Assembly (NCBI GenBank): GCA_964635825.1
Contig: CAZWQJ010000001.1
Location: 12,404 to 76,403, forward strand
Direction: 5' to 3'
Source of the DNA: an uncultured Victivallales bacterium
GTDB lineage: Bacteria; Verrucomicrobiota; Kiritimatiellia; UBA8416; JAIOPI01
Length of the DNA stretch: 64,000 nt
Shown one piece after another: positions 34,717 through 62,931 of this stretch. The notes below the pieces were generated by a model, which was not told the origin of the DNA, searched no databases, and saw nothing but the letters and a program-made list of their open reading frames with translations. The position numbers were made by a program, and so were the translations under genes. Numbering within the stretch: position 1 is the stretch's first letter; the number at the start of each line of letters is the position of its first letter.

Positions 34717-34743
34717 TAAGCGGGCCTTTCCCCATCACACCTC

Positions 34744-41054: not shown

Positions 41055-41064
41055 GCGGGGTGGC

Positions 41065-47000: not shown

Positions 47001-48129
47001 TCGTGCCGCCAGCGCTCACCGTCACGGCGCCATGGATCGTGCCCGATCCCCCGAGGGTACCTGTGCCCGCCACCGTGACCGCGCTGTTTGCTGGGAGCGA
47101 GCCGGGACTGTTCACCAGCAGCACGCCATTGCTGACCGTCGTCGAGCCGCCCAGCGTGTTGGTTCCGGAAAGCACCCAGGTGCCGGTGCCGTTCTTGATC
47201 AGCGACAGGGTGTTCCCGGAAATGGCGCCGGAAATCTTGCCGATCCCAGCCGTCGATCCCTGCAGTTGAAGTTGCTTGGCGCTGACAACCCCGGTCGCCA
47301 GTCCAACACTCCCCGACAACTCCAGTGTCCCGCCGGCGCCGGATTGGTCGAGAATGGACATGCTGCCCGGAAATGAGGCCGCCCCGTAGATCTTGATCGT
47401 GCGGTCCGTCGTTTCGCCGGCGCCGGTATACAGCACCTTGCCCGCGCTGCCCCCGAGGGTGCCCAGCGTGATGGTGCCGTTCGCCACCGTCGTGGGCCTG
47501 CCCAGGTTGCTGCTGGCGACAGGGGCGGAAACACGGTTCATCGACGCAACGCTCAGGGTACCCGGCCCACCGCTCGTGCCGCCGATCGTCACCGGACCGT
47601 CGAAGGTGTTCGCGCCTGACAAGACCAACGATCCCACGCCGGTGGTAATCAACCCTCGCCCCGCCGTTCCGCTGACAACGCCGCCGAGCGTCAGCGAACC
47701 GCTACCGAGCGTGACGGTCCGCGTCCCCGAGAGCGCTACATCGAGATTGACGGATTCCGCCACAACTCCCGTGCCGACGCTGATGTCGCCACCCAGCGTG
47801 ATCCCGTTGCCAAGGATGGTGTAGGCGTCGGCGCCGTTGTTGAACGCGATGCCGGCCACGGTGGTGCCGGCCGTGTCGTTCGTCAGCGTGGCGCCGCTGG
47901 CCCCGGCCGCGCCAAACGTGGGTGTATTCGTGGCGCCGAGCACACCTTCATTCCAGTTGGCGGCGGTGCCCCAAAGTGCATCGCCACCGTTGCCGTTCCA
48001 CGTCCGCGTGGCCGCCCGCGCCGCCCCGGCCGCCACCGCCAACCACACCGCTGCCCCAACCCGCACGCACGCGCGGACATGTGTTCGGCTCTTGGTTGCC
48101 CCCCTGCTTTCCATCCTATCCTCCGCCAC
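41065..48129 (-). CDS. 2354-aa secreted PATR surface protein with four large tandem Ig-like (BIG/invasin-like) modules and a C-terminal VLMVVR module.
   Basis: Signal peptide ...VRVGAAVWLAVAAGAARAATRTWNGNGGDALWGTAANWN. Numerous PATR repeats. ~230-aa modules repeated four times: VNGGTN...TYTKAESxVV...TSGNxQ...VVTVTDAHTN...AAGLSGSPVTF. Ends GDYAFLIHYDHAGRAITLTATAAGGGGVLMVVR. Confidence 0.8.
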   Translation of the reverse strand: MAEDRMESRGATKSRTHVRACVRVGAAVWLAVAAGAARAATRTWNGNGGDALWGTAANWNEGVLGATNTPTFGAAGASGATLTNDTAGTTVAGIAFNNGADAYTILGNGITLGGDISVGTGVVAESVNLDVALSGTRTVTLGSGSLTLGGVVSGTAGRGLITTGVGSLVLSGANTFDGPVTIGGTSGGPGTLSVASMNRVSAPVASSNLGRPTTVANGTITLGTLGGSAGKVLYTGAGETTDRTIKIYGAASFPGSMSILDQSGAGGTLELSGSVGLATGVVSAKQLQLQGSTAGIGKISGAISGNTLSLIKNGTGTWVLSGTNTLGGSTTVSNGVLLVNSPGSLPANSAVTVAGTGTLGGSGTIHGAVTVSAGGTIQPTMSGTPGTLTLSSDTAPTFGAYATLKIRATDGATDRVALSSATPVFGCNSLNLVLDATALSNNVMGATIVQTANAIGVAGKFNTTNVVGSYRATLAYSPTNVTVDLIKAANLAIVSVNGGTNAVSGVGFSVVVQAQDGLSGATNVAADTAFALTLKSGSGALGGTTNGTIAAGTSEVTVSSVTYTKAESNVVITATRTSGDLLAAGDSAAFTVVAGDPATLSLTSGNGQVGDVLTALASPFVVTVTDAHTNPVSGTAVAYAITGTPPGATGQSLSFTNATTLANGHASSLLTIGSVTGAYTVAASAAGLSGSPVTFNATGASIPPTTLAITLVNGGSNPSAGTGFGVVVQAQDAGGVPRHVLSDTAVVLSRSAGSGTLGGTLTGTITNGSNSVSISGVTYTKAESGVVLTATRTSGDALSAGTSAAFTVDAGAAAALAMTSGNNQTGGAGTVLGPLVVTVTDAHTNAVPGVDVAYAIAATPPGATGQALSSTNATTTGSGQASSTLTLGNATGTYAVVASAAGLSGSPVTFLAMAVPPWDGMTATYDADTGTPGAQDGTGTGWNTASSNFWNGVRNIAWPNGTTNVAVFGAGTGAAGLVTVGTVNANGLVFNPPGSGAYALTNGTITLVGAAPTLTANSAAVIQSALAGTAGLTKAGGADLTLSGGNSVSGSARMGAGRLLLNNYGSWMPAAGITIDVGATLEFNNTGTYTPANGATIGGGGTLAKSGAGTFNAGSGAGMLTFAMTGGVVDVQAGTFAATASTAGAAPNWVNNRAALNIEAGARVTMSAQSVAGNNFTVDALTGTGQLIITGFGGAFTVGANDGSGTFAGVITNSSGQSLAFTKNGTGTQILSGTNYYSGATTINGGVLLVDGDHTACAGSLTVKTNATLGGRGTLGGAVVMQSGGTLQPTLTGDSGTLTLLSATAPSIATNTTLRIRAPSSVPDLVNLANTGAVFRCAGLELVVDITGLTGDVFGAPIVQVARASGGIVGTFRGVRVEPAGAALVHYNAQTITLDLPPHLVIVSVNGGTNPVAGAPFGILVGAADGGGQLAPVSQDTSFALSLKTGAGVLGGTLSGTIPAGSNAVTVSGLTYTKAESGVRLMASQTAGDFMLAGDSAAFTVDPGPASSLTLTTGDAQTNTVATALASPMVVTVRDANGNAVPGYPVAFTLDGAPGGAAGQALSATNVFTAANGQASATLTLGDKPGLYAVSAVGTGLAGSPVHFTATGAGRLAILFVNGGSNPTAGLGFSVVVRAQNALNQPLAVTTNTSVALTLHTGTGALSGTLAGTIPAGGNTTTITGVTYTRAESGVVLALSGTGGDPMTPGTSGAFTVNPGPAARLQVSAGNNQSRLAGQTLLNPLVVSVIDAFTNSVPGVTVGFAIASTPPGATGQSLGVTNAISDGLGLAATTLTLGDAIGTYTVSASAGALAPVTFTATARAPWDGTWGIYDANTGVYGPQDGAGAGWNATNVNFWADTNNIAWPNGYALAIFGGGQGTAGTVSVGSVLAQDLRFDPTGAGEYTLAGGTLSLVGSPVSGPSVVTANTNGTITAVMSGSQGLTKRGPGSVTFSGTGFNAFSGVLAIEEGRVVLRDLDVLSVTNIHVSSNAVVELSTVTRDYKIIRKRVVLTGNGTYVKSGPRGFDYESRWFCGGGADPFDWDCTHYAYFQYAMSGGLLDIQDGTLFHDYDSGEENGFPWIPEAPRAFGSNKASMHIAAGALVKLAHWQFGYMWVDALTGLGTVQCQWQSAQTRQPAVLTVGVNNGSGTFNGLLDGTGGGVALTKVGSGTQTLAGISQYLGPTVVAGGTLFVRYALASPSVAVSSNATFGGSVTVSGTITNAGTLAPGGVGGTGSLSVLNDVTMLAGSTLDIDIQGPGGGSAANGYDQVLIAPGRRFALGEGTAALNVRVPNGAGVQVGQVFTIVSGDFSGTQFQGLPEGRTVKTGDYAFLIHYDHAGRAITLTATAAGGGGVLMVVR

Positions 48130-48144
48130 CCGCTCACTCCGTCG

Positions 48145-49866
48145 CTATCGCACGCTCATCAGCAGGCCGGTACTGTTGAACCCCGCCGATCGCGACGTGA
48201 GCACCACATTCCAGCCGCCCCCGTAGCTGATCACGAAGCGGTAAGGCCCCACGGCAATCTCCGCTCCTTCCGGCAGGTTGTGAAATGTCTCGCCCGTCAC
48301 GGCGCCGGAAACGATGGTCAGGGGTTGACCGTACGGAATGTTCACCCCGGCCGGCACCCGCACATTGAGCGTGATGACGCTGCCGCCGAGCTGCAGCGTC
48401 TTCCCTGGCATCACCACCAACTGATCGTATCCGCCCTCCGCCGCGCCCGCCGTCGTGCCGCGGATGTCGATGTCCAGCGTCGTCCCGCCGTTCATGAACA
48501 CGTTTTCCACGCCGAAGCGCCCTGTGGCTCCAATACCACCCGGCGCCAGCGTGCCGCCCGCCGCCACCGTCACCAGCGTGGTCAGGGCACCCACCCCGCC
48601 CAGGGTCGCTTTGTTCGCCACGTAGTACCACCCGCCTGCCGCATTGGTCGTGTGGTGCGCCCCGTTCACCAACAGCGTTCCCGCATTGACCGTCGTCGAA
48701 CCAAGATACGTATTCGTCGCGGCATTCAGGCTCCAGGTGCCGGCGCCGTCCTTGATCAGATTGCCGGACCCGCCGAACATGGCGTTCAGGGCGCCGTTCC
48801 CCGCCCCCGACAGCGTCAGATTGTGGCCATGGTCATGGATCACGTCCCAGCGGTTGGTGCCCGGAGGCGGAGTGCCCACGTTGAATACCTGCGGCCCGCT
48901 CGACTCGAGGGTCGCACCCGCCGGACCGATGGCGATCTGCCGGTCCAGGCGCCCTGCATCGCGGTTCCACCCGTTGTAACGCAGCGTGCCGCCGTCCAGC
49001 GTCAGGCTGGCTTCGAACCCAAGCTGCCCCAGCCCGAACCCGGCCTGCCCCCGCTGGTCGCCCCACGCATTCACCTCGAGCACCGCGCCTGTGCTCACCA
49101 GCACGGCCGGCGTCGTGCTCCACCCCAGGTCGCTGTACAACCCACCGTAGCCGTAGCCCTGCACCGCCAGCGTCCCAAATTCCACCCGCGTGTCGCCGGT
49201 GTACGTGTTGGTGACCGTCAGTTCCAGCGTGCCAAGCCCTTCTTTCGTGAGACTCGAACGCAACCAGTTCGTCCCACCGTCCGGATACGTCTCGTCCCGC
49301 AAGGGCGCCATCACCGTGAAGTCCGAGTCCGCGTTGCCCGTGACCTCATCCACCCAGAAGGTCGTGCTGGTTGCCAGATTCACGAAGTTGTGGTCCACCT
49401 CCGTGCGGCTCGTGATGCGGGACCCGGCCGGATTCGTGCCGACCACATAGACGTCGTGCGGCAACGAGAGCGCGCCGAAGTTGTTCAAATGGAACAGGCG
49501 ATTCATGAAGATCGTGCCGCCGTTTGTGAACGTCAGCAGGCGGGGCTGGTTCATGTAGGCGTAGTCGCTGCTCTGCAAGGTGCCGCTCTCGCCGACGTAC
49601 AATAGGAGCCGCTGCTGCTCGTTGTTGGTCGTCGCGATGACCGTACCGCTGTAGATCCGCGCGGCATCGAAGCTCTCGGATCTCGGGTAGGAATTCGTGG
49701 GCAGCAGTGAGCCGGTCAGATGCCAATTGGTCGTCGAGGTCCAGGAGTTGCTCACGCTCCCGTCCCACGTGTAGTCCGCATACTCGGACCGGCCGAGATG
49801 GGATGTCGCCACCGCCACCATGGCGACAGCAACCGCAGTCCGCCGCCATCCACGTCCTGTGTTCAT
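48145..49866 (-). CDS. 573-aa secreted PATR protein with the GLLMSVR C-terminal module.
   Basis: Preferred start MNTGRGWRRTAVAVAMVAVATSHLG at 49866: a signal peptide, with AGGGGG 8 nt upstream. The longest ORF extends to 50109 with a non-protein-like N-terminus. Ends ...VGPYRFVISYGGGWNVVLTSRSAGFNSTGLLMSVR. Paralogous N-terminal half with 50160..51308. Confidence 0.7.
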   Translation of the reverse strand: MNTGRGWRRTAVAVAMVAVATSHLGRSEYADYTWDGSVSNSWTSTTNWHLTGSLLPTNSYPRSESFDAARIYSGTVIATTNNEQQRLLLYVGESGTLQSSDYAYMNQPRLLTFTNGGTIFMNRLFHLNNFGALSLPHDVYVVGTNPAGSRITSRTEVDHNFVNLATSTTFWVDEVTGNADSDFTVMAPLRDETYPDGGTNWLRSSLTKEGLGTLELTVTNTYTGDTRVEFGTLAVQGYGYGGLYSDLGWSTTPAVLVSTGAVLEVNAWGDQRGQAGFGLGQLGFEASLTLDGGTLRYNGWNRDAGRLDRQIAIGPAGATLESSGPQVFNVGTPPPGTNRWDVIHDHGHNLTLSGAGNGALNAMFGGSGNLIKDGAGTWSLNAATNTYLGSTTVNAGTLLVNGAHHTTNAAGGWYYVANKATLGGVGALTTLVTVAAGGTLAPGGIGATGRFGVENVFMNGGTTLDIDIRGTTAGAAEGGYDQLVVMPGKTLQLGGSVITLNVRVPAGVNIPYGQPLTIVSGAVTGETFHNLPEGAEIAVGPYRFVISYGGGWNVVLTSRSAGFNSTGLLMSVR

Positions 49867-49882
49867 CGTCCGGCGCCCCCTG

Positions 49883-50030
49883 TTGATTCCTGCAGTAGTG
49901 CGTACCGTACCCGGACCGTCCACCATCGAAGGCTGGGGGGCAACCTTCATCACGCGGTACTGGGCGTACAGCGGGTTTCCTCGCTGCGGGATCAATCCCG
50001 GATCGCGGAACGCACTACTGCAGGAATCAA
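49883..50030 (-). promoter_or_regulatory. Perfect 20-bp inverted repeat, TTGATTCCTGCAGTAGTGCG (49883-49902) and CGCACTACTGCAGGAATCAA (50011-50030), enclosing 108 nt in the 5' leader of the PATR gene 48145..49866.
   Basis: The 3' arm of the predicted stem ends 16 nt before the ATG, directly abutting the GGGGG Shine-Dalgarno. The enclosed 108 nt contain a small hairpin, CGGGATCAATCCCG. Confidence 0.5.
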
Positions 50031-50137
50031 CGCAAGCCTTCTCCATTCCTTCGCGTCCCGTACGCCCCATCCCTGCACAACAACGGACCGCCCCGGAACG
50101 GCGATACATGAAATCTACCGCAAGCCGGCCACCCCCT

Positions 50138-50160
50138 CAAAACTATCAGTTTGGTATCAT
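50138..50160 (-). promoter_or_regulatory. Conserved upstream element, copy 3: CAAAACTATCAGTTTGGTATCAT.
   Basis: Overlaps the stop codon of 50160..51308. Lies upstream of the PATR operon 48145..49866 and 41065..48129. Confidence 0.6.
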
Positions 50161-51308
50161 CATTGGCCGGCGGTCGCGGCGGACACCAGCAGCGTGACGG
50201 CGGTCGGGGTGAGCTTCACCTCCCAACTCAGGCCCGGCGCCAGCACGGGCAAATTGGTGGCTGCGAACGCGCCGGTCACCTCCGCCCCCGTCAGGATGGT
50301 GAATCGATCACCAGCGACCGGCGCGTAACCGCGTGTCCGGACCGTCAGCGTCCCCCCGAGCGCGACCGCTCCGCTCGCCGCCAGGACGTCATACCCGCTC
50401 GCCGGCGTAGTCCCGAGAATATCCACCTCCAGAGTTCCCCCGGCATTCTGAGTGTAGCGCTTCTGGATGGAGAGCCGCCCGGCCCCGTCGCCAGGGCCGA
50501 CGATTCCATCCGAAACCACCTCGCCGCCGATGGTCCCATCCCCGCACAGCGTGGCACCGGAGGCCACCGTCACGCCGCCGGCCCCAAGCGAACCGCGAAC
50601 CAACAGGGCTCCCGCGCGAACGGTCGTGGTCCCGCTGTATGCGTTCGCGGCCGCCAGTTCCAGCGTTCCCGGCCCGTCCTTCACCAAGCTCGCCGGAACC
50701 CACGTCGTCCCCTGCCCCAAATCGGCGCCATCCGCCAGCGGCGCCGCGATCCTCAGATCCGGCTTCGCGTCGCCGGTCAGGTCGTAAACCTGCAACGTCG
50801 CCGTCGCCGGCAGATTGATGAAGTTGTGTTCGGTCGCTCCCCTCGCTTCGATCAAGGCCGGCTGCCAGTGCCGCCCGGTGACCCAAACCGTGGCCGGCAG
50901 CAGCAGCGCGCCGTAGTTGTTGTAGTGTGCATTGCGGACGAGCGCGAGCGCGCCGCCGCCGGAGAACGTCAGCAACGCCGGTTGTCCCATGTAGTTCATT
51001 TCGTTGCACGCCACCGTGCCATTGGTGCCGATGATGAGGAACAGCCCCTTCACCTGGTCCTTGTGATCGCAGGTTGCCGTGCCGCTGTACACGCAGGCAA
51101 TGTCACCGGGCACCGGCGCCGGGCCGTTCCACCCGACCGCGGTCCCGTCGCCCCAGGTGCTCGTCCCCCCGTTCCATGTCAGGCTGGCCGCCGCGGCCAA
51201 CTGGACACCCAGGGCGGCCATCCACACACCAACCCAACACCCCACAACCCGCATTGCCCGGAACGCGTACGGACGTGAATGGCTTGTCATGCGACTATTC
51301 TCCTGCAT
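50160..51308 (-). CDS. 382-aa secreted PATR protein (paralog of 48145..49866, lacking the LLMSVR tail).
   Basis: Signal-like MRVVGCWVGVWMAALGVQLAAAASLTWNGGTSTWGDG. PATR repeats (KDGPGTLELAAANAYSGTTTVRAGALLV). Its stop codon overlaps a copy of the conserved upstream element. Confidence 0.7.
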   Translation of the reverse strand: MQENSRMTSHSRPYAFRAMRVVGCWVGVWMAALGVQLAAAASLTWNGGTSTWGDGTAVGWNGPAPVPGDIACVYSGTATCDHKDQVKGLFLIIGTNGTVACNEMNYMGQPALLTFSGGGALALVRNAHYNNYGALLLPATVWVTGRHWQPALIEARGATEHNFINLPATATLQVYDLTGDAKPDLRIAAPLADGADLGQGTTWVPASLVKDGPGTLELAAANAYSGTTTVRAGALLVRGSLGAGGVTVASGATLCGDGTIGGEVVSDGIVGPGDGAGRLSIQKRYTQNAGGTLEVDILGTTPASGYDVLAASGAVALGGTLTVRTRGYAPVAGDRFTILTGAEVTGAFAATNLPVLAPGLSWEVKLTPTAVTLLVSAATAGQ

Positions 51309-51318
51309 GTCGAATTCC

Positions 51319-54300
51319 CTACTCGAACGTGATAATGGTCGTCAGCGGCAGCAACACGGTGAAGACCGCACTCCCCGACTGGCCTGCGCCCGTCACGATG
51401 AACGATTGCGCGCCACCGGTCACGGACGGTGTCACGCTGACACCTGACAACACGCCCGCCGTGAAGGCCCCCGAGGTGCCCGTGATCCCGGCCGTGCCGC
51501 TGTAGGTCACTGTGCCGCCGAAACCGGTGACGGTGTTGTTGAACGCATCCTGCGCCGTCAGCATGATGCCGGTGATGGGCGTGCCCGCCCGCTGCGGCGA
51601 CGCGATCGCCGAAATGGCAAAGTGGTCCAGCGGCCCGGGCGTGTAGCTGACGACCGACGCCGACGCCCCCACCGCCGTCCCCACCGCGGTCCCATTCATC
51701 GTGGCCACGAACGTCCCCGCCCCCGTCGCCGTCGGCGCCGTCACGGTCGCCGTGTACGTCCCGTCGCCATTGTCCGTCGTGGCGCCGACAGTGCCCGTCC
51801 CCGATTGCTTCGCAATCACCACGGTCTCGCCGCCGGCGGTCACGTTGACGTCATGGATATCCCGCCCCTGAACGGTGAGGACCGCCGTGCTGACCCCATC
51901 CGCCGCGATCAACGCCGGCGCCGCCGAGACGGTCGAATGCGCCGCATCCGCCGCAGACAGATCGAGGGTGATTGTGCCGCCGGCCGCGTTGTAGCTCACC
52001 GTGCCTCGGTAGCTCGTGTTCCCGATCACGGTGACGCTGCGGAACGCGCCACTGACGCCGCCGTTGCCGTGAGCCGAGGCGTCGACGATCGTCGCTCCCG
52101 CTATCGTGCCGCTGAGACCGGTCGTGTCGATAACCAAGTCCAGGTTGCCGCACGCGAAGGTGGCCGCGCCGTTGCTCAGGAGCACCTTGTCCGCGTAGGC
52201 GGTGCCCGTGATCGTCGTCGCACGGATGCGCAGGCTGCTGGCCGCGCCAAATGCGGGTGCGGTGGCGCTCGACAGCGTGAGCGTTCCAGGCTGCCCCGAC
52301 AGCGTGGGCTGAAGCGTGCTGCCGGCGCTGAATGCGACGGGGTTGGCGACCGTGCCGTTGCCGCCCAGCGTGCCACCACGGCGAACGGTCATGGTGCCGC
52401 CATCAAAGTTGTACGTGCCCGTGTTGAACAGCACAGCCCCCGCGTTGATGGTGAAGCTGTTGTAGCCGCCGCTGCCCGTGGTACCGCCGCTCAACACCAC
52501 CGTCCCCGGCCCGGCTTTCACGTAGTAGGCCGTGTAGGCACGCAATGCGGACCCGATCTCCAGCGCATTCGCCGTGTTCCACTGCTGGATGTAGACCGTG
52601 CCCAGATACCCCGCCTGCAGCGTGCCCCCGGCGATCCGGCTGAGGTTGTTCCCGACGTTCGGACTCACGAGGATGCCGCCGTTGCTGCCGTCGCCCACCG
52701 TGCACGTCCCCGACAAGGTCAGCGTCCGCGCCGCGGCCGCGTGGAAGCGCAGGCTCTCGCACGTCGCACCGGACACGGAGTTGTCGGCCGTCACATTCAC
52801 GTTGTTGCCCGACGCCCAGGTGTTGTTGACGTAACCCGCGTACGCCGTCACAGCGGTGTCGCTCGCCGAGGCCGCCGTCGCGGCCCAGTCCGTACCCGCC
52901 ACCGTCGCCCAGCCGCCCAGGATCCCCGAACTCTTGTTGGCCGTATCGCTGTCTGCCAGGCTCGCCACACCGAAGTCCACCGTCCCGCCATTGCTGGTGG
53001 AAACCCCGTTCATCCGCAGCGTGGCGGAGCCGCCGGATCGCACCACGCGATTCGCCCCGGACCCGAGTTGCGCCGAACCCACTGCCTCGGTGTGGGAGCC
53101 GCCGGCGAGGGTCAGCGCCGTGCCGTTCAGCGTCAGCGTCGAGGCGTCCGCCAGCTTCGAGCTATTCTGGTTTGCGAAATCCAGCGTGAACGCCCCGTCG
53201 CTGACGGTTGTGGCCCCGCTATACGTGTTCGCGCCCGACAGCACGAGCGTACCCGCGCCGGCCTTGGTCAGCCCCGCCGAACCCGCGATCGCCGCGCTGA
53301 TCGTTACGGCCTTCGTCCCTCCCAGCGCGTTCACCGTGAGCGTCGGCGTGCCGCCCGCCAGGGTCACCGTGTTGGCGGCGTTGCCGTCGTTGTCCAGGGT
53401 CCAGCCCGCCGCCGTGTTGGTGTCTACATCACCAAAGGCGAGGTCCTCGACGGTCACGGGAACGTCCACATGCACGGTGTTGTCCGCGGTCAGGTTTAGT
53501 GTGCCAAAGTACGCCGTGCGACCGGATCCGTAAGCCACATTGCCACCGCTCCAGTTGCCGGTGGCCATCCAGCTGCCGCCGCTGCCGGTGCGCGTCCAGG
53601 TGCCATCGCTCGTCGCCGGCACGCCGTACGCCGTGAACGTCACCGGACTGCCGCTCAGCCCCGCCGCCGTCGCCGTCACCGTGTAGGTCCCCAACTTGTC
53701 CCCCAGCGTCAGCGTGCTCGCGGCCTGCCCATTGCCCCCCGTCTGCGGACTCGACGCGCTGAGCGATTGCCCCACCGCACCGCCCGGAACCGTGCCGATC
53801 GCGATGCTCACCGTCGTCCCGCTCACCGGGTTGCCATGCTCGTCCGTCACCGTCACCACAAGCGGGCTGGCCAGCGCCGTGCTCATCGTCGTGCTCTGGT
53901 TGTTGCCCGATGTCAACGCCATGGCGTGCGCCGCGCCGGCGTTCACCGTGGTAATGGTCGCGGAACCGTTGTGACTGGAGCCATCCGTGACCGTGATCGT
54001 CTTCCCGCTGCCGGCGCTGGTCGCGGTCACACTCGGGCTGCTCAGCACCCCGCCCGAGAATGCGGCCGAAGTTCCCGTAACCCCCGCCGTGCCCCCGTAC
54101 GTCACGGTGCCCGCAAACGCGTTCGGCCCCGTGCTGCACGCGTTACCGTAGGCGTCCTTGGCCGTGATGCTCGTGAGCGCAAACGGCGTCCCCGCCGTCG
54201 CTGAGGCCACCGTCGCGGGTGCAATCGTGAACTGGCTCACCGGCCCCGGGTTGATGGTCGTGATCGTGGCGCTGCCGGTGTGACCAGCCCCGTCGTTCAT

Positions 54301-57018
54301 CGTGATGGTCAGACTGCTGCCCGCGTTCGTGGGCGTTACCGAGGCATTGCAGATGCCGCTCGCGAAGGCCGGCGACGCCCCCGTCACACCCGCCGTGCCG
54401 CCGAAGGTCACGGTGGCGCCGGTGTAGTCGGTCACCGTGCTGCCGCCGCCATTCTTGGCCGTGATCGTAATCGCCACCGGCGTGCCCGCCGTCTGCGGCG
54501 AGCCGATCGCATCGATGTCGAAGTGGTCCACGGCACCCACTAGCGTGATGACGCACTGCGACGCACCCACCGCCGTCCCCACCGCCGTGCCGCCCAGCGT
54601 CGCCGTCACCGTCGCGCTGCCGGACCCGACCGAAGAAGGCGCCGTCCATGTGGCCGTGTACGTCCCGTCGCCGTTGTCCGTGGCGCTGCCCACGGATCCC
54701 TCGGTCGCGCTGAAGACCACGGCGTCGCCGCCGATGCCGCGGTTGTTGTCGCTCGCGTCGCGCGCCGTCACCGTCACCGCGAGCGTGCTCACGCCACCCG
54801 CGCTCTTGACCGCCGTCACCGGATTGAGGGTGGAATGCGCGGCGTTCACCGCTCCGACCAGATCCAGCGTGATCGTGCCGGCGGCCGTGTTGTAGTGCAC
54901 CGTCGCCTCGTAGGACCCGCCATTCTGCAGCGTGACGCTGTGGAAGGTGCCGCTGACCCCGCCATTGCCATGCGCCGACGCGTCGACGATCGTCTTCCCC
55001 GCAAACCCGCCTGAAAGACCCGCCGCATCGATCACCAGGTCCACGTTGCCACAGGCAAACGCCGCGCCGGCGTGGCTCAGCACCACCTTGTCCGGCGTGC
55101 TCGACGGCGCGCGAATCTTCAACGTGCTGTAGGCGCCAAAGGCGGGCGACGAGGAACTCGCGAGGGTCAGCGCCGCGGCCGCGCCGGAGAGCGACGGCTG
55201 GATCGTCCCGCCGGCGTCCACCGTCACCGCATCCCTGTACGTCCCGTTGCCGCCCATGATGGCGCCGCTGCGAACGGTCAGCGGCCCGTTGTAGTAGCTG
55301 CTGGTGTTGAACAGCACCGCGCCCTGGTTGATGCGGAACCCATTGTAGTAATCGTACAGATCGGGAGCCCCGCCGCTGAGCAGCAGCGTTCCAGGCCCCG
55401 TCTTGACGTAGGTGATTTGGTTGTTGTTGAGCGCGCTGGCAATCTGCAGCACGTTGGCGGTGTTCCACTGCTGCAGATAGACGGCGGAGTCGGTGGTGCC
55501 CAGATCGCTGCCGCTGATGAGGCAGAGGTTGTTGCCGACTGCCGGCGTCACAAGGATGCCGCCCGCCGTGGAACTCGAACCGGCCCCCAGACTGCAGCGC
55601 CCCGTAAGCGTCAGCGTATAGGCGCCGGCGCTGTTGAACCGCAGCGTGTTGGGTGACGCCGCGCCGATCGTCTGGCTACTGACGATGTCGACATTCTGCC
55701 CGGCATAGTTCGCCGCCGTGTCGCCGCCGCTGGTTGAGGGATAGTACGTCGCCAGCGCCGTCACCGGCGTGTCGCCGGCCGAGGACGCCGTCACCGCCCA
55801 GTCCGCGCCCGCCACCGTCGCCCAGCCGCCCACGATCCCGTAGCCGTTGTTCGCGGTGTCGCTTTCCGCGATGCCCGCCGCGCCGAAGTCCACCGTGGCA
55901 TCGCCGCTCACCGCCAGCGCATTCAGCCGCAGCACGCTGCCCCCACTCGACCGCGTCACGGCACTCGCCCCGGCGTTGACCGTGAGGCCGTTGACGACTT
56001 CGGTGTACGTCCCGCCGCTCAGATCCAGCGTCGCCCGCGTCAGGCTCAACGCCGATCCCGATGCCAGCTTCGCGTTGTTCTGGCTCGCGTAGTCCAGCCG
56101 CAGCGTGCCCGCATGTACCGCCGCCGCGCCGCTTAACGTGTTGGCTCCGGCCAGCACCAGCGTGCCCGCGCCGGCCTTGGTCAAGCCTGCCGAGCCCCCC
56201 ACCGCCGCGCTGATGGTCGCGCTCATCGTCCCGCCCAGCGCGTTCACCGTGACCGTCGGCGTCGTCCCCGCCAGCGTCACCGTGTTCGCGGCGTTGCCGT
56301 TGTTGTCCAGCGTCCACCCCGCTGCCGTGGCCGTGGCGGCATCGCCAAAGGTCAGGCTGCCGATCGTCACCGGCTGATTCAGGTGAACCGTGTTATCCGC
56401 CGTCAGGTCCAGCGTGCTGAAGTCCGCCGTGCTGCCGGAGCCGTACGCGATGGCGCTTGCGCTCCAGTTCCCGGCCGTGAACCAGTCCCCGCCACTCGCC
56501 GTCTGCGTCCAGGTCCCGCTCGCGGACGCCGGCACCGCATACGCCGTGAACGTCACCGGGCTGCCGCTCAACCCCGCCGCCGTCGCCGTCACCGTGTACA
56601 TCCCCAACTTGTCGCCCAGCGTCAATCGGCTGGACGCCTGCCCGTTTGCGCCGGTCGTCGGGGCGGCAGCGCTCAGCGCCTGCCCCGACGCCCCGCCGGG
56701 CACCGTGTCGATCGCGTAGTTCACCGTCGTGCCGCTCACCGGGTTGCCATAGACATCCGTGACCGTCGCCACAAACGACGAACCCAACTGCGCGCCCGTG
56801 GTGCCGTTCTGGTTGTTGCCCGAGGTCAGGGCGATGGCGTGGGCCGACGCGGAACTCACCGTCGTGATCGTGGCCGAACCCGTATGGCCGGAGCCGTCAT
56901 CCACCGTGATCGTCTTGCCGCTGCCCGCGCTCGTTGCCGTCACGCTCGGGCTGCTCAACACGCCCGCCGAGAACGCGGCCGAGGTTCCCGTCATCCCCGC
57001 CGTCCCACCGTACGTCAC
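51319..57018 (-). CDS. C-terminal 1899 codons of the same giant PATR gene. Open frame with no credible own start or signal peptide.
   Basis: Same reading frame as 57115..62790: both ORF 3' coordinates are 0 mod 3. The 'M' at 57018 is a GTG inside continuous repeat sequence. Translation through 57019-57114 gives ATAGTPFALTSITAKDVYGNACDSGANEFTGTVTYGGTAG, which continues the repeat seamlessly. Confidence 0.6.
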   Translation of the reverse strand: MTYGGTAGMTGTSAAFSAGVLSSPSVTATSAGSGKTITVDDGSGHTGSATITTVSSASAHAIALTSGNNQNGTTGAQLGSSFVATVTDVYGNPVSGTTVNYAIDTVPGGASGQALSAAAPTTGANGQASSRLTLGDKLGMYTVTATAAGLSGSPVTFTAYAVPASASGTWTQTASGGDWFTAGNWSASAIAYGSGSTADFSTLDLTADNTVHLNQPVTIGSLTFGDAATATAAGWTLDNNGNAANTVTLAGTTPTVTVNALGGTMSATISAAVGGSAGLTKAGAGTLVLAGANTLSGAAAVHAGTLRLDYASQNNAKLASGSALSLTRATLDLSGGTYTEVVNGLTVNAGASAVTRSSGGSVLRLNALAVSGDATVDFGAAGIAESDTANNGYGIVGGWATVAGADWAVTASSAGDTPVTALATYYPSTSGGDTAANYAGQNVDIVSSQTIGAASPNTLRFNSAGAYTLTLTGRCSLGAGSSSTAGGILVTPAVGNNLCLISGSDLGTTDSAVYLQQWNTANVLQIASALNNNQITYVKTGPGTLLLSGGAPDLYDYYNGFRINQGAVLFNTSSYYNGPLTVRSGAIMGGNGTYRDAVTVDAGGTIQPSLSGAAAALTLASSSSPAFGAYSTLKIRAPSSTPDKVVLSHAGAAFACGNVDLVIDAAGLSGGFAGKTIVDASAHGNGGVSGTFHSVTLQNGGSYEATVHYNTAAGTITLDLVGAVNAAHSTLNPVTAVKSAGGVSTLAVTVTARDASDNNRGIGGDAVVFSATEGSVGSATDNGDGTYTATWTAPSSVGSGSATVTATLGGTAVGTAVGASQCVITLVGAVDHFDIDAIGSPQTAGTPVAITITAKNGGGSTVTDYTGATVTFGGTAGVTGASPAFASGICNASVTPTNAGSSLTITMNDGAGHTGSATITTINPGPVSQFTIAPATVASATAGTPFALTSITAKDAYGNACSTGPNAFAGTVTYGGTAGVTGTSAAFSGGVLSSPSVTATSAGSGKTITVTDGSSHNGSATITTVNAGAAHAMALTSGNNQSTTMSTALASPLVVTVTDEHGNPVSGTTVSIAIGTVPGGAVGQSLSASSPQTGGNGQAASTLTLGDKLGTYTVTATAAGLSGSPVTFTAYGVPATSDGTWTRTGSGGSWMATGNWSGGNVAYGSGRTAYFGTLNLTADNTVHVDVPVTVEDLAFGDVDTNTAAGWTLDNDGNAANTVTLAGGTPTLTVNALGGTKAVTISAAIAGSAGLTKAGAGTLVLSGANTYSGATTVSDGAFTLDFANQNSSKLADASTLTLNGTALTLAGGSHTEAVGSAQLGSGANRVVRSGGSATLRMNGVSTSNGGTVDFGVASLADSDTANKSSGILGGWATVAGTDWAATAASASDTAVTAYAGYVNNTWASGNNVNVTADNSVSGATCESLRFHAAAARTLTLSGTCTVGDGSNGGILVSPNVGNNLSRIAGGTLQAGYLGTVYIQQWNTANALEIGSALRAYTAYYVKAGPGTVVLSGGTTGSGGYNSFTINAGAVLFNTGTYNFDGGTMTVRRGGTLGGNGTVANPVAFSAGSTLQPTLSGQPGTLTLSSATAPAFGAASSLRIRATTITGTAYADKVLLSNGAATFACGNLDLVIDTTGLSGTIAGATIVDASAHGNGGVSGAFRSVTVIGNTSYRGTVSYNAAGGTITLDLSAADAAHSTVSAAPALIAADGVSTAVLTVQGRDIHDVNVTAGGETVVIAKQSGTGTVGATTDNGDGTYTATVTAPTATGAGTFVATMNGTAVGTAVGASASVVSYTPGPLDHFAISAIASPQRAGTPITGIMLTAQDAFNNTVTGFGGTVTYSGTAGITGTSGAFTAGVLSGVSVTPSVTGGAQSFIVTGAGQSGSAVFTVLLPLTTIITFE

Positions 57019-59930
57019 CGTGCCCGTGAACTCATTCGCGCCCGAGTCGCAGGCGTTGCCATAAACGTCCTTCGCCGTGATGCTCGTCAGCGCAAACGGC
57101 GTCCCCGCCGTGGCCTAGGCGACGGGATTCGGCGCGATCGTGAACTGGCTGACCGGCCCTGGCCGGATCAGGCCGATCGTCACCGACCCCGTGTGCTCCA
57201 CCGGCGTCGCGCCGTCGCTGACCGTGACATGCAGGCTCATCCCCGCCACAGTAGGTGTCACGCTGGCATTGCACACGCCGGCGAGGAACAGCGGCGAGGT
57301 GCCGGTCACGCCCGCGTCACCGCCGAACACGACCGTCAGGCCTGTGTAGTCGGTCACCGTCGCGTTGCTCGCGTTCTTGGCCGTGATTGTGATGGCAATG
57401 GGCGTCCCGGCCGTCTGCGGCGACGCGATCGCGTCGATGTCGAAATGATCCACCGCCGGCACAAGCGTGATCACGCATTCGTCCGCGCCCACGGCCGTGC
57501 CCACCGCCGTGCCGCCCAGAGTGGCCGTGACCGTCGCGCTGCCCGCCCCCACCGACGACGGCGCCGTCCACGTCGCCGTGTAGGTTCCGTCGCCGTGATC
57601 GGTCGTCGCGCCCATCGATCCCGCCGTCGCGTCGAAGACCACCGTGTCGCCGCCGCTGCTGCGCGGGTTGCCGTCGGCGTCGCGCGCCTGCACGGTCACC
57701 ACCTGCGTGATGGTGCCGTCCGCCGCCTTCGTCGCCGTGGCCGGGCTGAGCGTCGAATGCGCGGCCTCCGCGGCACCGGCGAGATCCAGCGTGATCGTGC
57801 CCGCGGCGGTGTTGTAATGCAGCGTCGCCTGGTACGTTCCGATTACGGTCATCGTGTGGAACGTCCCTCCGACGCCGCCGCTGCCGTGCGCCGACGCGTC
57901 CACAATCGTCGCCCCCGTGCATCCGCTGCTGAGCCCGGTGGTGTCGATCACCAGGTCCACGTTGCCGCAGGCAAACGTCGCGCCGCTGTTGCTCAGCACC
58001 ACCTTGTCCGGCGTGCTCGCCGGCGCGCGGATCTTCAGCGTGGCGTAAGCACCAAAGGACGGCGAGGTGGAACTCGCGAGTGTCAGCGTCGCGGACGCAC
58101 CGGCAAGCGATGGCTGCATCGTGCCCCCGGCGTTCACCGTCACGTCGTCCATGTAGGTCCCGCTGCCACCTAGGGTGCCGCCGTCGCGCACCGTCAGCGG
58201 CCCGTTGTAGTAGCTGCCGGCGTTGAACAGGATCGCGCCTTGATTGATCCAGAATCCGTTGTAGTAATCGTAACCGCTCGGCGCGCCGCCCGAGAGCACC
58301 ACCGTGCCGGGGCCCGTCTTCACATAGTGGTGCTGGGCGTTGTCGAGCGCGCTTTCAATTTCCAGCACATTCGCCGTGTTCCACTGCTGCAGGTACACCG
58401 CGCGCTGGTAGCCCGCGGAGAGCGTCGCACCGGCGATCTTGCTCAAGTAGTTCCCCACCGCCGGCGTCACCAGAATGCCGCCCACCACGGCGGCATCGCC
58501 GGCGCCCAACGTGCAGGTCCCGGTCAGCGTCAGGGTGTAGGCTCCCGCGCTGTTGAACCGCAGCGTGTTGGGATGCGCCGCGCCGATCGTCTGGCTGCTG
58601 ACGATGTCGGCGTTCTTGTTGTTGTAGTTCGCGGCGGTATCGCCACCGCTGCTGGACGGGTAGTAGGTCGCCAGCGCGGTGACGGGGGTGTCGCCTGCCG
58701 AGGACGCGGTCACCGCCCAGTCCGCTCCCGCCACCGTGGCCCAGCCGCCGAGGATGTTGTAGGCGTTGTTCGCGGTGTCGCTGTCCGCGATGCCGGCCGC
58801 GCCAACGTCCACCGTGGCGTAACCGCTTTCGGTCAGCGCATTCAGCCTCAGCACGCTGCCGCCGCCCGTGCGCGTCACCGCGCAAGCCCCACCGCTGACC
58901 GTCACCCCGTTGACCGCCTCCGTGTGCGATCCGCCACTGAGGTCCAGCGTGGCCCGCGTCAGCGTCAAGGCGGAGCCGGACGCCAGCTTGGCATTGTTCT
59001 GGCCGGTGTAGTCCAACCGCAGCGTGCCCGCGTTGACCGCCGCCGCCCCGCTGAACGTGTTCGCGCCCGCCAGCACGAGCGTGCCCGCGCCCGCCTTGGT
59101 CAAGCCGGCCGCCCCCCCCACCGCCGCGTTGACGGTCACCGCTTTCGTCCCGCCCAACCCGCCCACCGTGATCGTGGGCGTCGTCCCTGCCAGCGTGATG
59201 ATGTTGGCCGCGTTCCCGTTGTCGTCCAGCGTCCACCCCGCCGCCGTGCCCGTGGCCGTGTCGCCGAACGCCACACTGTTGATCGTCAGCGGAAAGTCGA
59301 GGTGCACCGTGTTGTCCCCCGTCAGATCCAGCGTGCTGAAGTTCGCCGTCCGCGTGGACCCGTACGCCACCATACCGCCGCTCCAGTTGCCAGGCGTGCC
59401 CCAGTTGCCGCCGCTGGTCGACTGCGTCCACGTCCCGTTATTGGAAGCCGGCACGGCCGCCGCCGTGAACGTCACGGGACTGCCGCTCAGCCCCGCCGCC
59501 GTCGCCGTCACCGTGTAGGTCCCCGCCACGTTGCCCAGTGTCAGCGTGCTCGACGCCTGCCCGCTGCCGGCCGTCGTCGGGCCGGTGGCGCTCAAGCCTT
59601 GACCGGACGCGCCGCCCGGGACCGCGCCAATCGCGAAGGTCACGGTCGTGCCGCTGACCGGGTTCCCGTAGCCATCCGTCACCGTCACCACAAACGGGCT
59701 CGCCAGCGCCGCGCTCAGGCTTCCGCTCTGGTTGTTCCCCGACGTGTAGGCGATGGCCGCCGCCGTGGTCGCCGAGACCGTCACGGACAACCGGTCGCTG
59801 CCACTGGAACTGATCGAACCGTCCGAGACACTGATCGTCGCCGATTCGGCCTTGTACAGCGTCATCACCCCGTTGTTGCCACTGGAGACCGTGGCCACGC
59901 CGCTGCCGAACGTGATCGGCGTCGCCGTTT
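51319..59930 (-). repeat. Three tandem ~2.9-kb (about 970-codon) repeat units inside the giant PATR gene. Units are approximately 57115-59930, 54202-57114 and 51319-54201.
   Basis: Protein segments such as AGLTKAGAGTLVLAGANTFSGAAAVNAGTLRLDY..., GGWATVAGADWAVTASSAGDTPVTALATYYPS... and PGGASGQ.LSA..PTTG.NGQASS.LTLG recur three times with ~80-90% identity. Antisense shadow ORFs recur with a 2913-2919 nt offset. Confidence 0.75.
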
Positions 59931-62790
59931 GGAATGCGACCACCGCGCCACCGCTATCCTTGACCGTCGGATCCGTCACCGGGTTGGACGAACTGCCGGC
60001 GCCCGAGAACGTCAGGTTCTTCGACCCGGCATAGGCCGGATCCGTGTTGCCATAGGGATCTTTCGCCGTGATCGTCAGGTTCTGGCCAACCCCGGCCGTT
60101 TGCGTGCCGCTGCCCGTGATCGCCAGTTTGACCGCCGTCGCCGGGCCGACCGTCAGGCTCAGCCCCGAGGCGCCCGTGCCGCTGGAACTCGATTTACCGC
60201 CGTTGTCCGTCAGATGCACCGTGACCGGCCCTTCCGCCTTCTTCGGCACCAACGCCCCGCCGGCCGTGCACACGCCATCCAGGAACGTGAGCGTCTCCAC
60301 CGTGCCGAAATTCTGCGCCGCCCCGTTCTTGTCCGTCACGGTCGGATGGCTCCCGTCCGGTGAATCCGCCAGCCCGCTGAAGGTGACGTTCACGTCGCCG
60401 TCGTAATCCATCGTGTTGCCATCGCCACTCAGCGCGGTGATGGTCAGGCTCTGGCTGGCGCCCGCGGTCTGCGTGGCGCTGCCCTCGATCTTGTAGGCGC
60501 TCGGACCGGTACTGACCGTCAGGTTCACGGACCCACCGCTGACCGCGATGATCGCGGTCCCGCCGGCGGCGATCCCCGATCCCGTCACATTCACCGTGTA
60601 CGACGGCGACCCCGCCTGGTTGATCGTCCCGCCCGCCACCTCGATCAGCCGGTACGTCCCACTGCCCAGCGGCGTGCCGCCCGCGTTGTTGACCGTAAAG
60701 GCGTTGTTGTTCAGCGTAAGCGCACCCTGCGAGATGCAGAGCGAGGGATGCGTGGTGTCGCCGCTGAACCCGGTCGGCGTGAACTTCAGGTTGACCGGCC
60801 GGCTGCCCAGGCTGACGGTCGTGTTCCCTTTGATCGTCGCGGCGGTGGTCCCGGCGCTGGTGCCGGTGCCTCGCGCGTCCAGCGTGGCGCTGGTTCCAAG
60901 CGTGTAAGTGGCCGCCGCTGCGGACACATCCAGGGTGCCGCCCGCCTCAATTCGGACATCCGACCCCGCCGGCAGCGCGCAGCTCGCGCCCGAGAGCGCC
61001 AGCGTCCCGGAACTCAGCGTCGTCGTCCCGCTGTAGGCCTCGGTCCCGTTATAGCTCAGTGTCAGCGTCCCGCTGCCCAGCTTCGTCAGCCCACCGGACT
61101 GAGTGGACGTCAGTTGGGTGGCGAACGTAATGCTCTCGCCCGCCGTGTCGATCTTGATGGCACTCGCGCTGGTGCCCGAGGCAATCCGCGATGACGGATC
61201 CCACGCCGCGCTGGCCGCACTGAACTGCAGCGTGCCGCCTCCGAACACGATATTGCCGCTCGCGCCTAGGGGGCCATCGGTCGTGCCGTTCTGCGCCCGT
61301 CCCGCATTGAGCACCCCATCATTGATCGTCGTGCCGCCCGTGTACGTACTCGCGCCGGACAGCGTCCATGTGCCGCTGCCGGACTTGATCACCGCGGTCT
61401 TGTTGCCGCTGGAGTTGTTGACAATCGCCGCGTTGATCTCGCCCGTGCCCGCCGTCGAGCCCTTCAGCGTCAAATCCTTGCTCCCGGCGCCCCCCGCCGT
61501 AAACGCGCTCGTGAATTTCAGCAGCCCCGAGCCGGACTGATCCAGCGTCGCGCTTCCGCTCGTGCCCGCCAGGTTGATCACCCGGTCGCTCGTCTCGCCC
61601 GCCCCCGTGTACACCAGCGTCCCCGCCGTCGTGGAGTTGCCGAGCGCAATCGTGCCGTTCCCAGAGGTGGTTGGCTTCCCAAGACTGCTGCTGGTGTTGG
61701 GACTAAGGCTGCCGCTGGTGATGTAGTTCAGCGACGCCACGCTCAGCGTGCCCTCGTTGACCTTCGTGGGCCCGGTGTAAACGTTGGCGCCCGACAAGGT
61801 CCACGTGCCGCTGCCGCTCTTGGTGATGCCGCTGCCGGAGGACCCGGCGCCGATCGCACCGCTGATTTCGCCATACCCCGTGCCGGTTAGGGCGATGTGT
61901 ATCGTGTTGCCGTACGAGTAGGAAACCGCGCCCGTGAACTTCAGCGGCGAACCGGATGTCGTGGTGCCCGATGCCTCAATGCCGGCGGCGGCCGCACTCA
62001 GATATCCCCCGATCTTCAGCAGCCGGTCGCTCGTTTCCCCCGCACCGGTGTACTTCAGAAGGCCTGCCGCCGTCCCGCCGGAGGAACCAATGTTGATCGT
62101 CCCATTTGCCGAACTCGTCGGGTGACCAAGGTTGCTGCTCGCACTCCCACTCACGCTGTTGACCGTAGTCACGCTCAGCGTCGCCGCGCTCGACAGGGAT
62201 GTGCCGCCGGAGACCGTCACCGGTCCGTCAAACGTGTTCGCGCCGGACATGACCGTCGTTGCGCTGGACCCACCTACCGTCACGCCCCGCCCCGACGTCC
62301 CCCCGTCGCTGATCGTCCCCCCCAACGTCAGCGTCCCGCTGCTGACCGTGAACGTCCGCGTCGCCGACAGGATCATGTCGACGTTGATGTTCTCCGCCGT
62401 GATTCCCGTGCCGACGGTGATGTTGCCGCCGAGCGTGATGCGGTTGCCGGAGATCGTGTACGAGGCGGCGCTGTTGTTGAACGCGATGGCCGTGGCGCTC
62501 GCTAAGTTGATGTCGGCGGTCAGGTTGTTGTTGAGGCTGGTCCCGCTCGAGCCGGCCGCGCCGAAAACCAGGTTGTCGCCACCCACCGGCGCCGTGCCGC
62601 CCCAGTTGGCGCCGGTGTTCCAGTTGACATCGTTGTTGCCGCTCCAGGTCTTGGCGGCCGCCAGCGCCTCGCCCGCCGTCAGTAGCGGCAGCGCCACCAG
62701 CAGGGCCAGCACCAAAACGCCACCCCTCGACCGCATGACCGGACACCGTGCCGCGTCATGGGCCTTGACCCAATCGTTGCGTGCTTGCAT
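57115..62790 (-). CDS. N-terminal 1891 codons of a giant PATR surface-protein gene, terminated by an in-frame TAG at 57115-57117.
   Basis: Signal peptide MRSRGGVLVLALLVALPLLTAGEALAAAKTWSGNNDVNWNTGANW. An alternative ATG at 62736 is likely the true start. PATR repeats throughout. The last ~940 aa form repeat unit 1 of the 2.9-kb tandem repeat. Confidence 0.75.
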   Translation of the reverse strand: MQARNDWVKAHDAARCPVMRSRGGVLVLALLVALPLLTAGEALAAAKTWSGNNDVNWNTGANWGGTAPVGGDNLVFGAAGSSGTSLNNNLTADINLASATAIAFNNSAASYTISGNRITLGGNITVGTGITAENINVDMILSATRTFTVSSGTLTLGGTISDGGTSGRGVTVGGSSATTVMSGANTFDGPVTVSGGTSLSSAATLSVTTVNSVSGSASSNLGHPTSSANGTINIGSSGGTAAGLLKYTGAGETSDRLLKIGGYLSAAAAGIEASGTTTSGSPLKFTGAVSYSYGNTIHIALTGTGYGEISGAIGAGSSGSGITKSGSGTWTLSGANVYTGPTKVNEGTLSVASLNYITSGSLSPNTSSSLGKPTTSGNGTIALGNSTTAGTLVYTGAGETSDRVINLAGTSGSATLDQSGSGLLKFTSAFTAGGAGSKDLTLKGSTAGTGEINAAIVNNSSGNKTAVIKSGSGTWTLSGASTYTGGTTINDGVLNAGRAQNGTTDGPLGASGNIVFGGGTLQFSAASAAWDPSSRIASGTSASAIKIDTAGESITFATQLTSTQSGGLTKLGSGTLTLSYNGTEAYSGTTTLSSGTLALSGASCALPAGSDVRIEAGGTLDVSAAAATYTLGTSATLDARGTGTSAGTTAATIKGNTTVSLGSRPVNLKFTPTGFSGDTTHPSLCISQGALTLNNNAFTVNNAGGTPLGSGTYRLIEVAGGTINQAGSPSYTVNVTGSGIAAGGTAIIAVSGGSVNLTVSTGPSAYKIEGSATQTAGASQSLTITALSGDGNTMDYDGDVNVTFSGLADSPDGSHPTVTDKNGAAQNFGTVETLTFLDGVCTAGGALVPKKAEGPVTVHLTDNGGKSSSSGTGASGLSLTVGPATAVKLAITGSGTQTAGVGQNLTITAKDPYGNTDPAYAGSKNLTFSGAGSSSNPVTDPTVKDSGGAVVAFQTATPITFGSGVATVSSGNNGVMTLYKAESATISVSDGSISSSGSDRLSVTVSATTAAAIAYTSGNNQSGSLSAALASPFVVTVTDGYGNPVSGTTVTFAIGAVPGGASGQGLSATGPTTAGSGQASSTLTLGNVAGTYTVTATAAGLSGSPVTFTAAAVPASNNGTWTQSTSGGNWGTPGNWSGGMVAYGSTRTANFSTLDLTGDNTVHLDFPLTINSVAFGDTATGTAAGWTLDDNGNAANIITLAGTTPTITVGGLGGTKAVTVNAAVGGAAGLTKAGAGTLVLAGANTFSGAAAVNAGTLRLDYTGQNNAKLASGSALTLTRATLDLSGGSHTEAVNGVTVSGGACAVTRTGGGSVLRLNALTESGYATVDVGAAGIADSDTANNAYNILGGWATVAGADWAVTASSAGDTPVTALATYYPSSSGGDTAANYNNKNADIVSSQTIGAAHPNTLRFNSAGAYTLTLTGTCTLGAGDAAVVGGILVTPAVGNYLSKIAGATLSAGYQRAVYLQQWNTANVLEIESALDNAQHHYVKTGPGTVVLSGGAPSGYDYYNGFWINQGAILFNAGSYYNGPLTVRDGGTLGGSGTYMDDVTVNAGGTMQPSLAGASATLTLASSTSPSFGAYATLKIRAPASTPDKVVLSNSGATFACGNVDLVIDTTGLSSGCTGATIVDASAHGSGGVGGTFHTMTVIGTYQATLHYNTAAGTITLDLAGAAEAAHSTLSPATATKAADGTITQVVTVQARDADGNPRSSGGDTVVFDATAGSMGATTDHGDGTYTATWTAPSSVGAGSATVTATLGGTAVGTAVGADECVITLVPAVDHFDIDAIASPQTAGTPIAITITAKNASNATVTDYTGLTVVFGGDAGVTGTSPLFLAGVCNASVTPTVAGMSLHVTVSDGATPVEHTGSVTIGLIRPGPVSQFTIAPNPVA

Positions 62791-62908
62791 GCACCCCTCC
62801 CGACAGGCTACCCCGGCTTGCCGCTACGACCGCTTGCGCAGATTCCCCCGAATCCTCATGCGCCCCCAATACATCATCGGAATGGTACCGGAGCGTGTCC
62901 AGACCTCG

Positions 62909-62931
62909 CAAAACTATCACTTTGGTATCAT
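62909..62931 (-). promoter_or_regulatory. Conserved upstream element, copy 4: CAAAACTATCACTTTGGTATCAT.
   Basis: Lies in the divergent intergenic region between the giant PATR gene (start 62790/62736) and the GntR-type regulator gene (start 62986). Confidence 0.6.

Follow-up and report, generated by a model that had tools for sequence, protein, structure and literature searches.

One in-frame TAG in the frame of an 11.5-kb PATR/Ig-like surface-protein gene of an uncultured bacterium

Giant surface-protein genes that appear as two reading frames

The closest described counterpart of the locus analyzed here is ebh of Staphylococcus aureus. Most strains have it as one giant gene; in Mu50 and N315, one mutation has led to its annotation as two genes, ebhA and ebhB (PMC3868527). 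Both loci share the principle that a giant, repetitive surface-protein gene is turned by a single small change into two adjacent ORFs on the same strand, in the case of ebh in some strains. The differences concern the lesion, the modules and the host: in ebh, the lesion is a reported frameshift that is fixed in named clinical lineages, whereas here it is a nonsense substitution found in one assembly, and while ebh is composed of FIVAR/GA modules, the protein described here consists of PATR beta-helix and Ig-like modules and belongs to an uncultured environmental bacterium.

Not only mutations produce such pairs of frames. Local assembly errors can also break a giant gene into two neighboring ORFs, which curation joins again (West-Roberts et al., bioRxiv 10.1101/2023.11.21.568195). 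As in those cases, the adjacent giant ORFs on one contig are here a single gene, but most of those splits went back to indels or local misassemblies of long-read or Illumina contigs, whereas here the window differs from independent contigs by one substitution and no indel.

With respect to its domains, the encoded protein belongs to the PATR (“autotransporter-associated beta strand repeat”) proteins, which are common in the PVC superphylum; it combines PF12951 repeats with Big_1 and Invasin_D3 Ig-like domains. The source names of its homologs include Verrucomicrobia, Limisphaerales, Luteolibacter, Opitutaceae and Phycisphaerae, and several paralogs are encoded in the same stretch of DNA. A 973-aa super-repeat with one beta-helix per unit is a particular architecture in comparison with the PATR proteins of the PVC superphylum, and no claim of novelty rests on it.

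A third group of systems in which a long open frame follows a stop codon is programmed read-through and amber recoding, for which the A1 protein of phage Q-beta and pyrrolysine are examples. The likeness is superficial only and consists in an in-frame stop that is followed by a long, open and homologous frame. Unlike in these systems, the stop is here not conserved and lacks a stimulatory element, and TAG is a true terminator nearby. The finding is an ordinary one, with no signal for programmed recoding.

A single gene with one internal stop

All coordinates are positions of the window, i.e. of the whole 64-kb stretch of DNA that was analyzed, and the features of the locus are compiled in Table 1. 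Two ORFs, 57115..62790 (1891 aa, beginning with ATG) and 51319..57018 (1899 aa, beginning with GTG), lie on the minus strand, and the sequence-only reading that preceded this analysis had claimed that they share one frame and are parted by the TAG at 57115-57117 alone. Translation of 51319..62790 bears this out, as the 11.5 kb yield 3824 codons, among which codon 1892 (of 3823) is the only stop besides the terminal one. On the gene strand, the internal stop stands in the context GTC GCC TAG GCC ACG. Below it, the open frame continues throughout 51319..57114, which gives 1931 codons without a stop and agrees with the earlier statement that the downstream ORF is fully open; the longest open stretch in the window measures 1932 codons. 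The GC3 value of the downstream part is 0.89, compared with 0.88 in the upstream part.

Table 1. Features of the giant gene and its surroundings (window coordinates)
Feature	Position	Strand	Remarks
Conserved 21-nt motif TGATACCAAAGTGATAGTTTT, likely shared promoter or operator	62910..62930	minus	about 120 nt 5' of the giant-gene ATG
Shine-Dalgarno-like GGAGGGG	62794..62800	minus	3 nt 5' of the ATG at 62790; read directly
Upstream part, codons 1-1891	57118..62790	minus	signal peptide, N-terminal PATR beta-helix module, Ig-like stalk, super-repeat unit 1 to its fourth domain
Super-repeat unit 1, codons 1012-1984	56839..59757	minus	self-BLAST and three-unit alignment; TAG 14 codons into domain B
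Premature TAG, codon 1892	57115..57117	minus	TCG (Ser) in the sibling allele; differing base at 57116
Downstream part, codons 1893-3823	51322..57114	minus	remainder of spacer domain B, then units 2 and 3; fully open, frame as upstream
Super-repeat unit 2, codons 1985-2957	53920..56838	minus	77% aa and 73% nt identity to unit 1
Super-repeat unit 3, codons 2958-3823	51322..53919	minus	without spacer domain B; three-unit alignment
Natural stop (TAG) of the giant gene	51319..51321	minus	C-terminus shared by a 95%-identical strain
Next gene, 376-aa PATR protein (P0091) with its own signal peptide	50160..51290	minus	28 nt below the giant gene; anchor for retrieving independent assemblies

The domain composition is the same on both sides of the TAG. 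Pfam recognizes PATR, Big_1 and Invasin_D3 in the upstream part, with PATR in five stretches, and finds all three domains also beyond the stop; the scores for PATR (PF12951) are 104.3 and 59.8 bits, compared with the Pfam gathering cut-off of 27. The upstream part carries a typical signal peptide (MRSRGGVLVLALLVALPLLTAGEALA/AAKTW, codons 19-44). The autotransporter beta-barrel (PF03797) was not detected by Pfam in the giant protein, and as there is no C-terminal beta-barrel translocator, the protein is not a classical type V autotransporter.

Self-BLAST resolves the region behind the first ~1000 residues, which comprise a PATR beta-helix and an Ig-like stalk, into three super-repeats with a period of 2919 nt, or 973 codons. 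In each super-repeat, a Big_1 Ig domain is followed by a PATR beta-helix, an Invasin_D3 Ig domain and an Ig-like domain A, and the whole protein contains four PATR beta-helix modules that are spaced by Ig-like domains. The alignment of the three units places a further Ig-like spacer domain B behind domain A in units 1 and 2, and the protein ends 8 residues past domain A of unit 3 (...VLLPLTTIITFE). The units are by no means the three nearly identical 2.9-kb copies that had been assumed before, as their identities are just 73% and 68% at the DNA level and 77%, 61% and 59% at the protein level. The position of the stop exactly at a tandem-repeat junction likewise holds in a loose sense only: the TAG is found in spacer domain B, which links units 1 and 2, at 14 codons from the beginning of this domain, and the alignment of unit 2 to the start of unit 1 sets in 93 codons after the TAG. 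What was seen correctly is that the repeat runs on across the stop, with ...NPVA, the stop and then ATAGTPFALTSITAKDVYGNAC in unit 1 corresponding to ...TVASATAGTPFALTSITAKDAYGNAC in unit 2.

Could the downstream half nevertheless be a gene of its own, so that two genuine genes lie next to each other and the second is expressed from an internal start? The existence of two long ORFs speaks for this, and nothing else does. Neither a start preceded by a Shine-Dalgarno sequence nor a signal peptide is present within 300 codons of the TAG, in line with the initial observation that the downstream ORF has no start signals of its own, and the first in-frame candidates below the TAG, a GTG at +33 codons and an ATG at +41 codons, both lack a Shine-Dalgarno sequence as well as an ensuing signal peptide. 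In the region 56600..57600, there is neither a sigma-70-like promoter site nor a minus-strand terminator-like site. The TGATACCAAAGTGATAGTTTT motif occurs in four copies in the window (14577, 33400, 50139 and 62910; 0 expected by chance), every one of which sits just 5' of a minus-strand gene start, and no copy is found near the TAG. The TAG moreover interrupts an Ig-like domain that runs unbroken in its homologs, and in the sibling allele described below the two frames are one ORF, so that two separate genes are in practice refuted. The region 51319..62790 is one gene for a giant PATR/Ig-like surface protein.

There is also no sign that the downstream part drifts as a long-standing pseudogene. 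With unit 3 as outgroup, 71 lineage-specific amino acid changes are counted in unit 2 and 58 in unit 1, a difference that is not significant (chi2 1.3), and the dN/dS ratio between units 1 and 2 is 0.26.

An intact sibling allele and the nature of the base change

A comparison with orthologous loci, including a check of the base at 57116, had been proposed for this locus, and it gave the answer. The strain occurs in several public metagenomes, and the samples that contain it are JGI 3300045131, 3300059473, 3300044990 and 3300044991 as well as SRA SRR35365923, SRR35365870, SRR21424283, SRR21424284 and SRR21799897. A protein search of genome and metagenome contigs returned no ortholog but only matches of 30-61% identity, mostly to the conserved PATR lead module, and a junction-spanning search in a set of 5.8 billion proteins, in which very long proteins may not be indexed, returned no near-identical protein, all 90 matches being at most 1400 aa long. 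The route that succeeded went through the neighboring gene to its homolog cluster P0091, from there to the members of the cluster, and finally to the contigs that encode them.

The decisive contig obtained in this way is Ga0485169_0000775 of the JGI metagenome 3300045131 (L066; 31.8 kb). It can be aligned without any gap to 61221..46156 of the window, and 21 of the 22 mismatches fall in the neighboring 2354-aa PATR gene. L066 covers 9.9 kb of the giant gene, and the sole mismatch there is window position 57116, where the TAG of our sequence is TCG (Ser) in L066. All 3300 covered codons of the giant gene are open in this contig, and the gene is called as one product of 3798 aa, which has matches to PATR, Big_1 and Invasin_D3. 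A second assembly, JGI/NCBI 3300059473, contains a 15,260-bp contig on which P0091 is preceded by a gene whose called product is an uninterrupted partial protein of 3358 aa that extends to the contig end. A third contig (L063) comes from a 95%-identical strain; the last 1120 codons are intact there, the C-terminus is shared, and the dN/dS ratio is 0.19. In this strain, purifying selection acts on the downstream half.

The TAG is a private one-base difference from an otherwise identical intact allele. In the closest domain homologs, Ser, Thr or Ala occupies the position of the TAG, and the alignments pass through it unbroken. Ser is found exactly at this position in P0009 (...NPVASATAGTPFALTSITAK; ...DPNPVASATAGTPFALTSITAK) and in P0024 (...APATIASATAGTPFALTSITAK), and it is the ancestral residue at codon 1892. 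The locus thus has what characterizes a gene disrupted by a nonsense change, namely one in-frame stop, homology across this stop, and an intact allele with a sense codon in a close relative. The change is C>A on the gene strand, or G>T on the plus strand, at window position 57116. The TAG is one step from TCG, the codon of the sibling allele, but not from the internal copy, as the homologous codon of unit 2 is TCA. For the same reason, gene conversion from unit 2 was rejected as a source of the TAG.

We consider it probable, at roughly 0.6, that the TAG is a real nonsense variant at the strain level. The gene encodes a secreted protein of ~3800 aa, and on this reading a very recent nonsense substitution has changed TCG (Ser) to TAG at codon 1892. 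The intact TCG allele exists in the same natural population, and the complete openness of the downstream 5.8 kb has its simple explanation in the recency of the change. The very recent nonsense mutation that had been named among the possible explanations is fully compatible with the data, since an otherwise identical TCG allele exists. The quality of the window sequence argues for a real variant. Two independent contigs (L054 and L055) match window 23424..44716 with 100% identity, and the comparison of the window with independent contigs shows neither a difference nor a gap over 21.3, 20.4 and 6.7 kb. Outside one strain-variable patch, the window has no other substitution or indel against ~48 kb of independent contigs, and from this agreement it follows that the consensus of the window is accurate. 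Co-existing strain alleles can moreover be demonstrated near the giant gene. For the hypervariable patch nearby, no donor copy was found in the window that would indicate a DGR-like or paralog-templated origin.

Two observations point in the opposite direction. The products truncated by the TAG (ORF1 with three starts, ORF2 with two starts) have no exact record in the public gene collection, and as they are nowhere on record, the TAG allele is seen in this window only; two neighboring genes with first-ATG starts have no exact record in this collection either. In addition, the exchange of G by T is the classic artefact of oxidative damage, and the G>T on the plus strand fits such an artefact.

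The TAG could accordingly have arisen by error in the consensus or in base calling, or the assembler may have picked a minor allele, and the real gene would then be intact with TCG and encode ~3800 aa. We regard this as possible but less likely. It would agree with a single base being off over 9.9 kb in comparison with an independent assembly that has the expected Ser codon, with the second assembly being uninterrupted as well, with the lack of a truncated product in any other record, and with the documented splitting of giant genes by local assembly errors (bioRxiv 10.1101/2023.11.21.568195). Against it stands the absence of any other substitution or indel in the comparison with the ~48 kb of independent contigs outside the strain-variable patch. 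The repeats offer no explanation for an erroneous base either: with 68-73% identity, the units are too divergent for mis-mapped repeat reads to generate it, and the TCA codon of unit 2 has no A to donate at the second codon position. From the earlier suggestion of a sequencing or assembly error, it is hence the single-base error that is compatible with the data, whereas a misassembly through collapse of the repeats was rejected on the grounds of the 68-73% unit identity and the gapless colinearity with independent contigs.

Other properties of the site do not discriminate. The change creates a CTAG, a tetranucleotide that is strongly avoided in the window (observed/expected 0.04), which suits any very recent change, be it real or artefactual. 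Only 1.8% of the possible substitutions in the giant gene create a stop, and this fraction is equal for errors and mutations. In 574 kb of related loci, no comparable single in-frame stop in PATR/Ig genes was recognized by eye; the output consists mostly of off-frame ORFs of GC-rich DNA and gives no clean base rate.

Termination at the TAG and its possible consequences

What would happen to a ribosome at this codon? A genome-wide reassignment of TAG is ruled out, as TAG ends other genes at conserved C-termini. At 7143, TAG closes a PKD/SASA protein with the C-terminus ...PRRFYRLELR; its paralog has ...PRRFYKLQKR and uses TGA. At 48145, TAG closes a PATR protein with ...GLLMSVR, and a paralog with the same C-terminus again uses TGA. 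Behind each of these two TAGs, the next gene begins with an ATG and a signal peptide. Together with the natural stop of the giant gene, the gene-ending TAGs in the window are those at 7143, 48145 and 51319.

Alternatively, ribosomes might pass the UAG, be it through a programmed context or through a tRNA of the amber-suppressor or pyrrolysine type, and in such a case an 1891-aa form would be made alongside the full 3823-aa form. The 1931 perfectly open downstream codons with their coding GC3 of 0.89 would suit this, as would the closeness of the stop to a domain boundary resembling that at the natural C-terminus, whereby both products would be structurally sensible. Nevertheless, such a read-through is very improbable. 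The stop codon is not conserved at this site, which has TCG in the sibling and Ser, Thr or Ala in homologs, and an allele that is otherwise identical over 9.9 kb simply has a Ser codon; TAG terminates other genes of the window at conserved C-termini. There is no stimulatory RNA structure: the 121 nt that begin 3 nt 5' of the TAG and extend downward do not fold better than shuffled sequences (z = +1.04), and the sequence below the TAG is nearly the same as in unit 2, where the codon is a sense codon. No tRNA gene is present in the 64-kb window. The suggestion of a programmed or suppressor read-through thus finds no support in these data, and phase variation, which had been considered as well, lacks a mechanistic basis, as the site has no simple or tandem repeat and no invertible element but a plain substitution.

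A combined view would be that the TAG allele is real and that its UAG is partly read through or suppressed, resulting in a short adhesin with one unit and a long adhesin with three units. In a milder version, the nonsense SNP would be a selected length-variation allele, because it cuts the protein almost at a natural C-terminal domain boundary. We hold this to be speculative and only slightly less improbable than read-through as such.

If the variant is real, which is the reading that we prefer, release at the UAG after residue 1891 would result in a secreted protein that consists of the N-terminal module and one super-repeat, and units 2 and 3 would not be made. As unit 3 has no domain B and its C-terminus lies 8 residues past domain A, such a truncated product would end at nearly the same structural position, namely 14 residues past an Ig-like domain, which is close to equivalent to the natural C-terminus after unit 3. 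The truncated product would probably be stable. The remaining 5.8 kb would be an untranslated remnant that is too young to have decayed. Premature termination far ahead of the natural stop can lower downstream expression by transcriptional polarity, and a stop located 5.8 kb before the natural end could in this way reduce the expression of the downstream 376-aa PATR gene.

With regard to recoding or phase variation, the locus raises no new question. For the annotation, it means that the two “genes” of 1.9 kaa each are to be replaced by one gene of ~3800 aa, or by a single entry as a pseudogene or truncation allele. A real SNP would be a small case of standing loss-of-function or length variation of a giant surface protein in a natural population of a PVC-type bacterium, and such variation is expected for targets that are large, non-essential and surface-exposed.

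An upstream motif and the gene neighbourhood

The genes around the giant PATR surface-protein gene (window 1-48000) form a glycan-utilisation-type neighbourhood, in which an ABC sugar-binding protein and permease, an L-arabinose isomerase, a GH2 beta-galactosidase, SASA-type and GDSL esterases and a polysaccharide deacetylase are encoded together with several right-handed beta-helix proteins and a CotH/LTD protein of 2117 aa. The 21-nt motif TGATACCA(A/C)A(G/C)TGAT(A/C)G(T/A)TTT occurs four times in the window, with zero copies expected by chance, and every copy is found a short distance before the point at which a minus-strand gene or a cluster of such genes begins. The genes behind these copies encode secreted PATR or carbohydrate-active proteins, and the motif is probably a promoter or operator that is common to them; its 3' half (TAGTTTTG) resembles a TAnnTTTG-type -7 element.

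Positions of the discussed features in the window
Feature	Position	Strand
21-nt motif	14577-14597	minus
21-nt motif	33400-33420	minus
21-nt motif	50139-50159	minus
21-nt motif	62910-62930	minus
C-termini, PATR paralogs	25284, 41065, 48145	
C-termini, PKD/SASA esterase-like proteins	7143, 10596	
2354-aa PATR gene	41065..48129	
Variable patch, within 2354-aa PATR gene	46901-46993	
Further variable stretch	46234-46463	
CTAG sites	5319, 6749, 14553, 54540, 57115, 58170, 61266, 63526	

C-terminal tails and strain variation

PATR paralogs in the window have the tail G(L/V)LM(S/V)VR-stop in common, and two PKD/SASA esterase-like proteins end on PRRFY(R/K)L(E/Q)(L/K)R-stop. These tails may act as signals for sorting or anchoring. 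The C-terminus of the giant gene is a different one (LLPLTTIITFE-stop).

The window differs from the metagenome contig L066 at 22 positions, 17 of which are packed into 93 nt of the 2354-aa PATR gene; these 17 are mostly A in the window and G in L066, and alter six residues of the translation. A further variable stretch was noted alongside. Contigs of three further assemblies stop at 46156, 46500 and 46994; these ends suggest that strain alleles co-exist and break short-read assemblies. No donor copy for the patch was found in the window.

CTAG scarcity and protein length

CTAG is extremely under-represented, with 8 sites in the whole window versus about 195 expected (ratio 0.04). Half of the eight are CCTAGG, three of these four being inside the giant gene, where GCCTAGGC arises from the premature stop itself.

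All 90 matches of the large protein search with the junction-spanning query had at most 1400 aa, even though PATR proteins of giant size are common. Very long proteins may not be returned by the word-indexed protein search, in which case intact orthologs of giant genes would be hidden.
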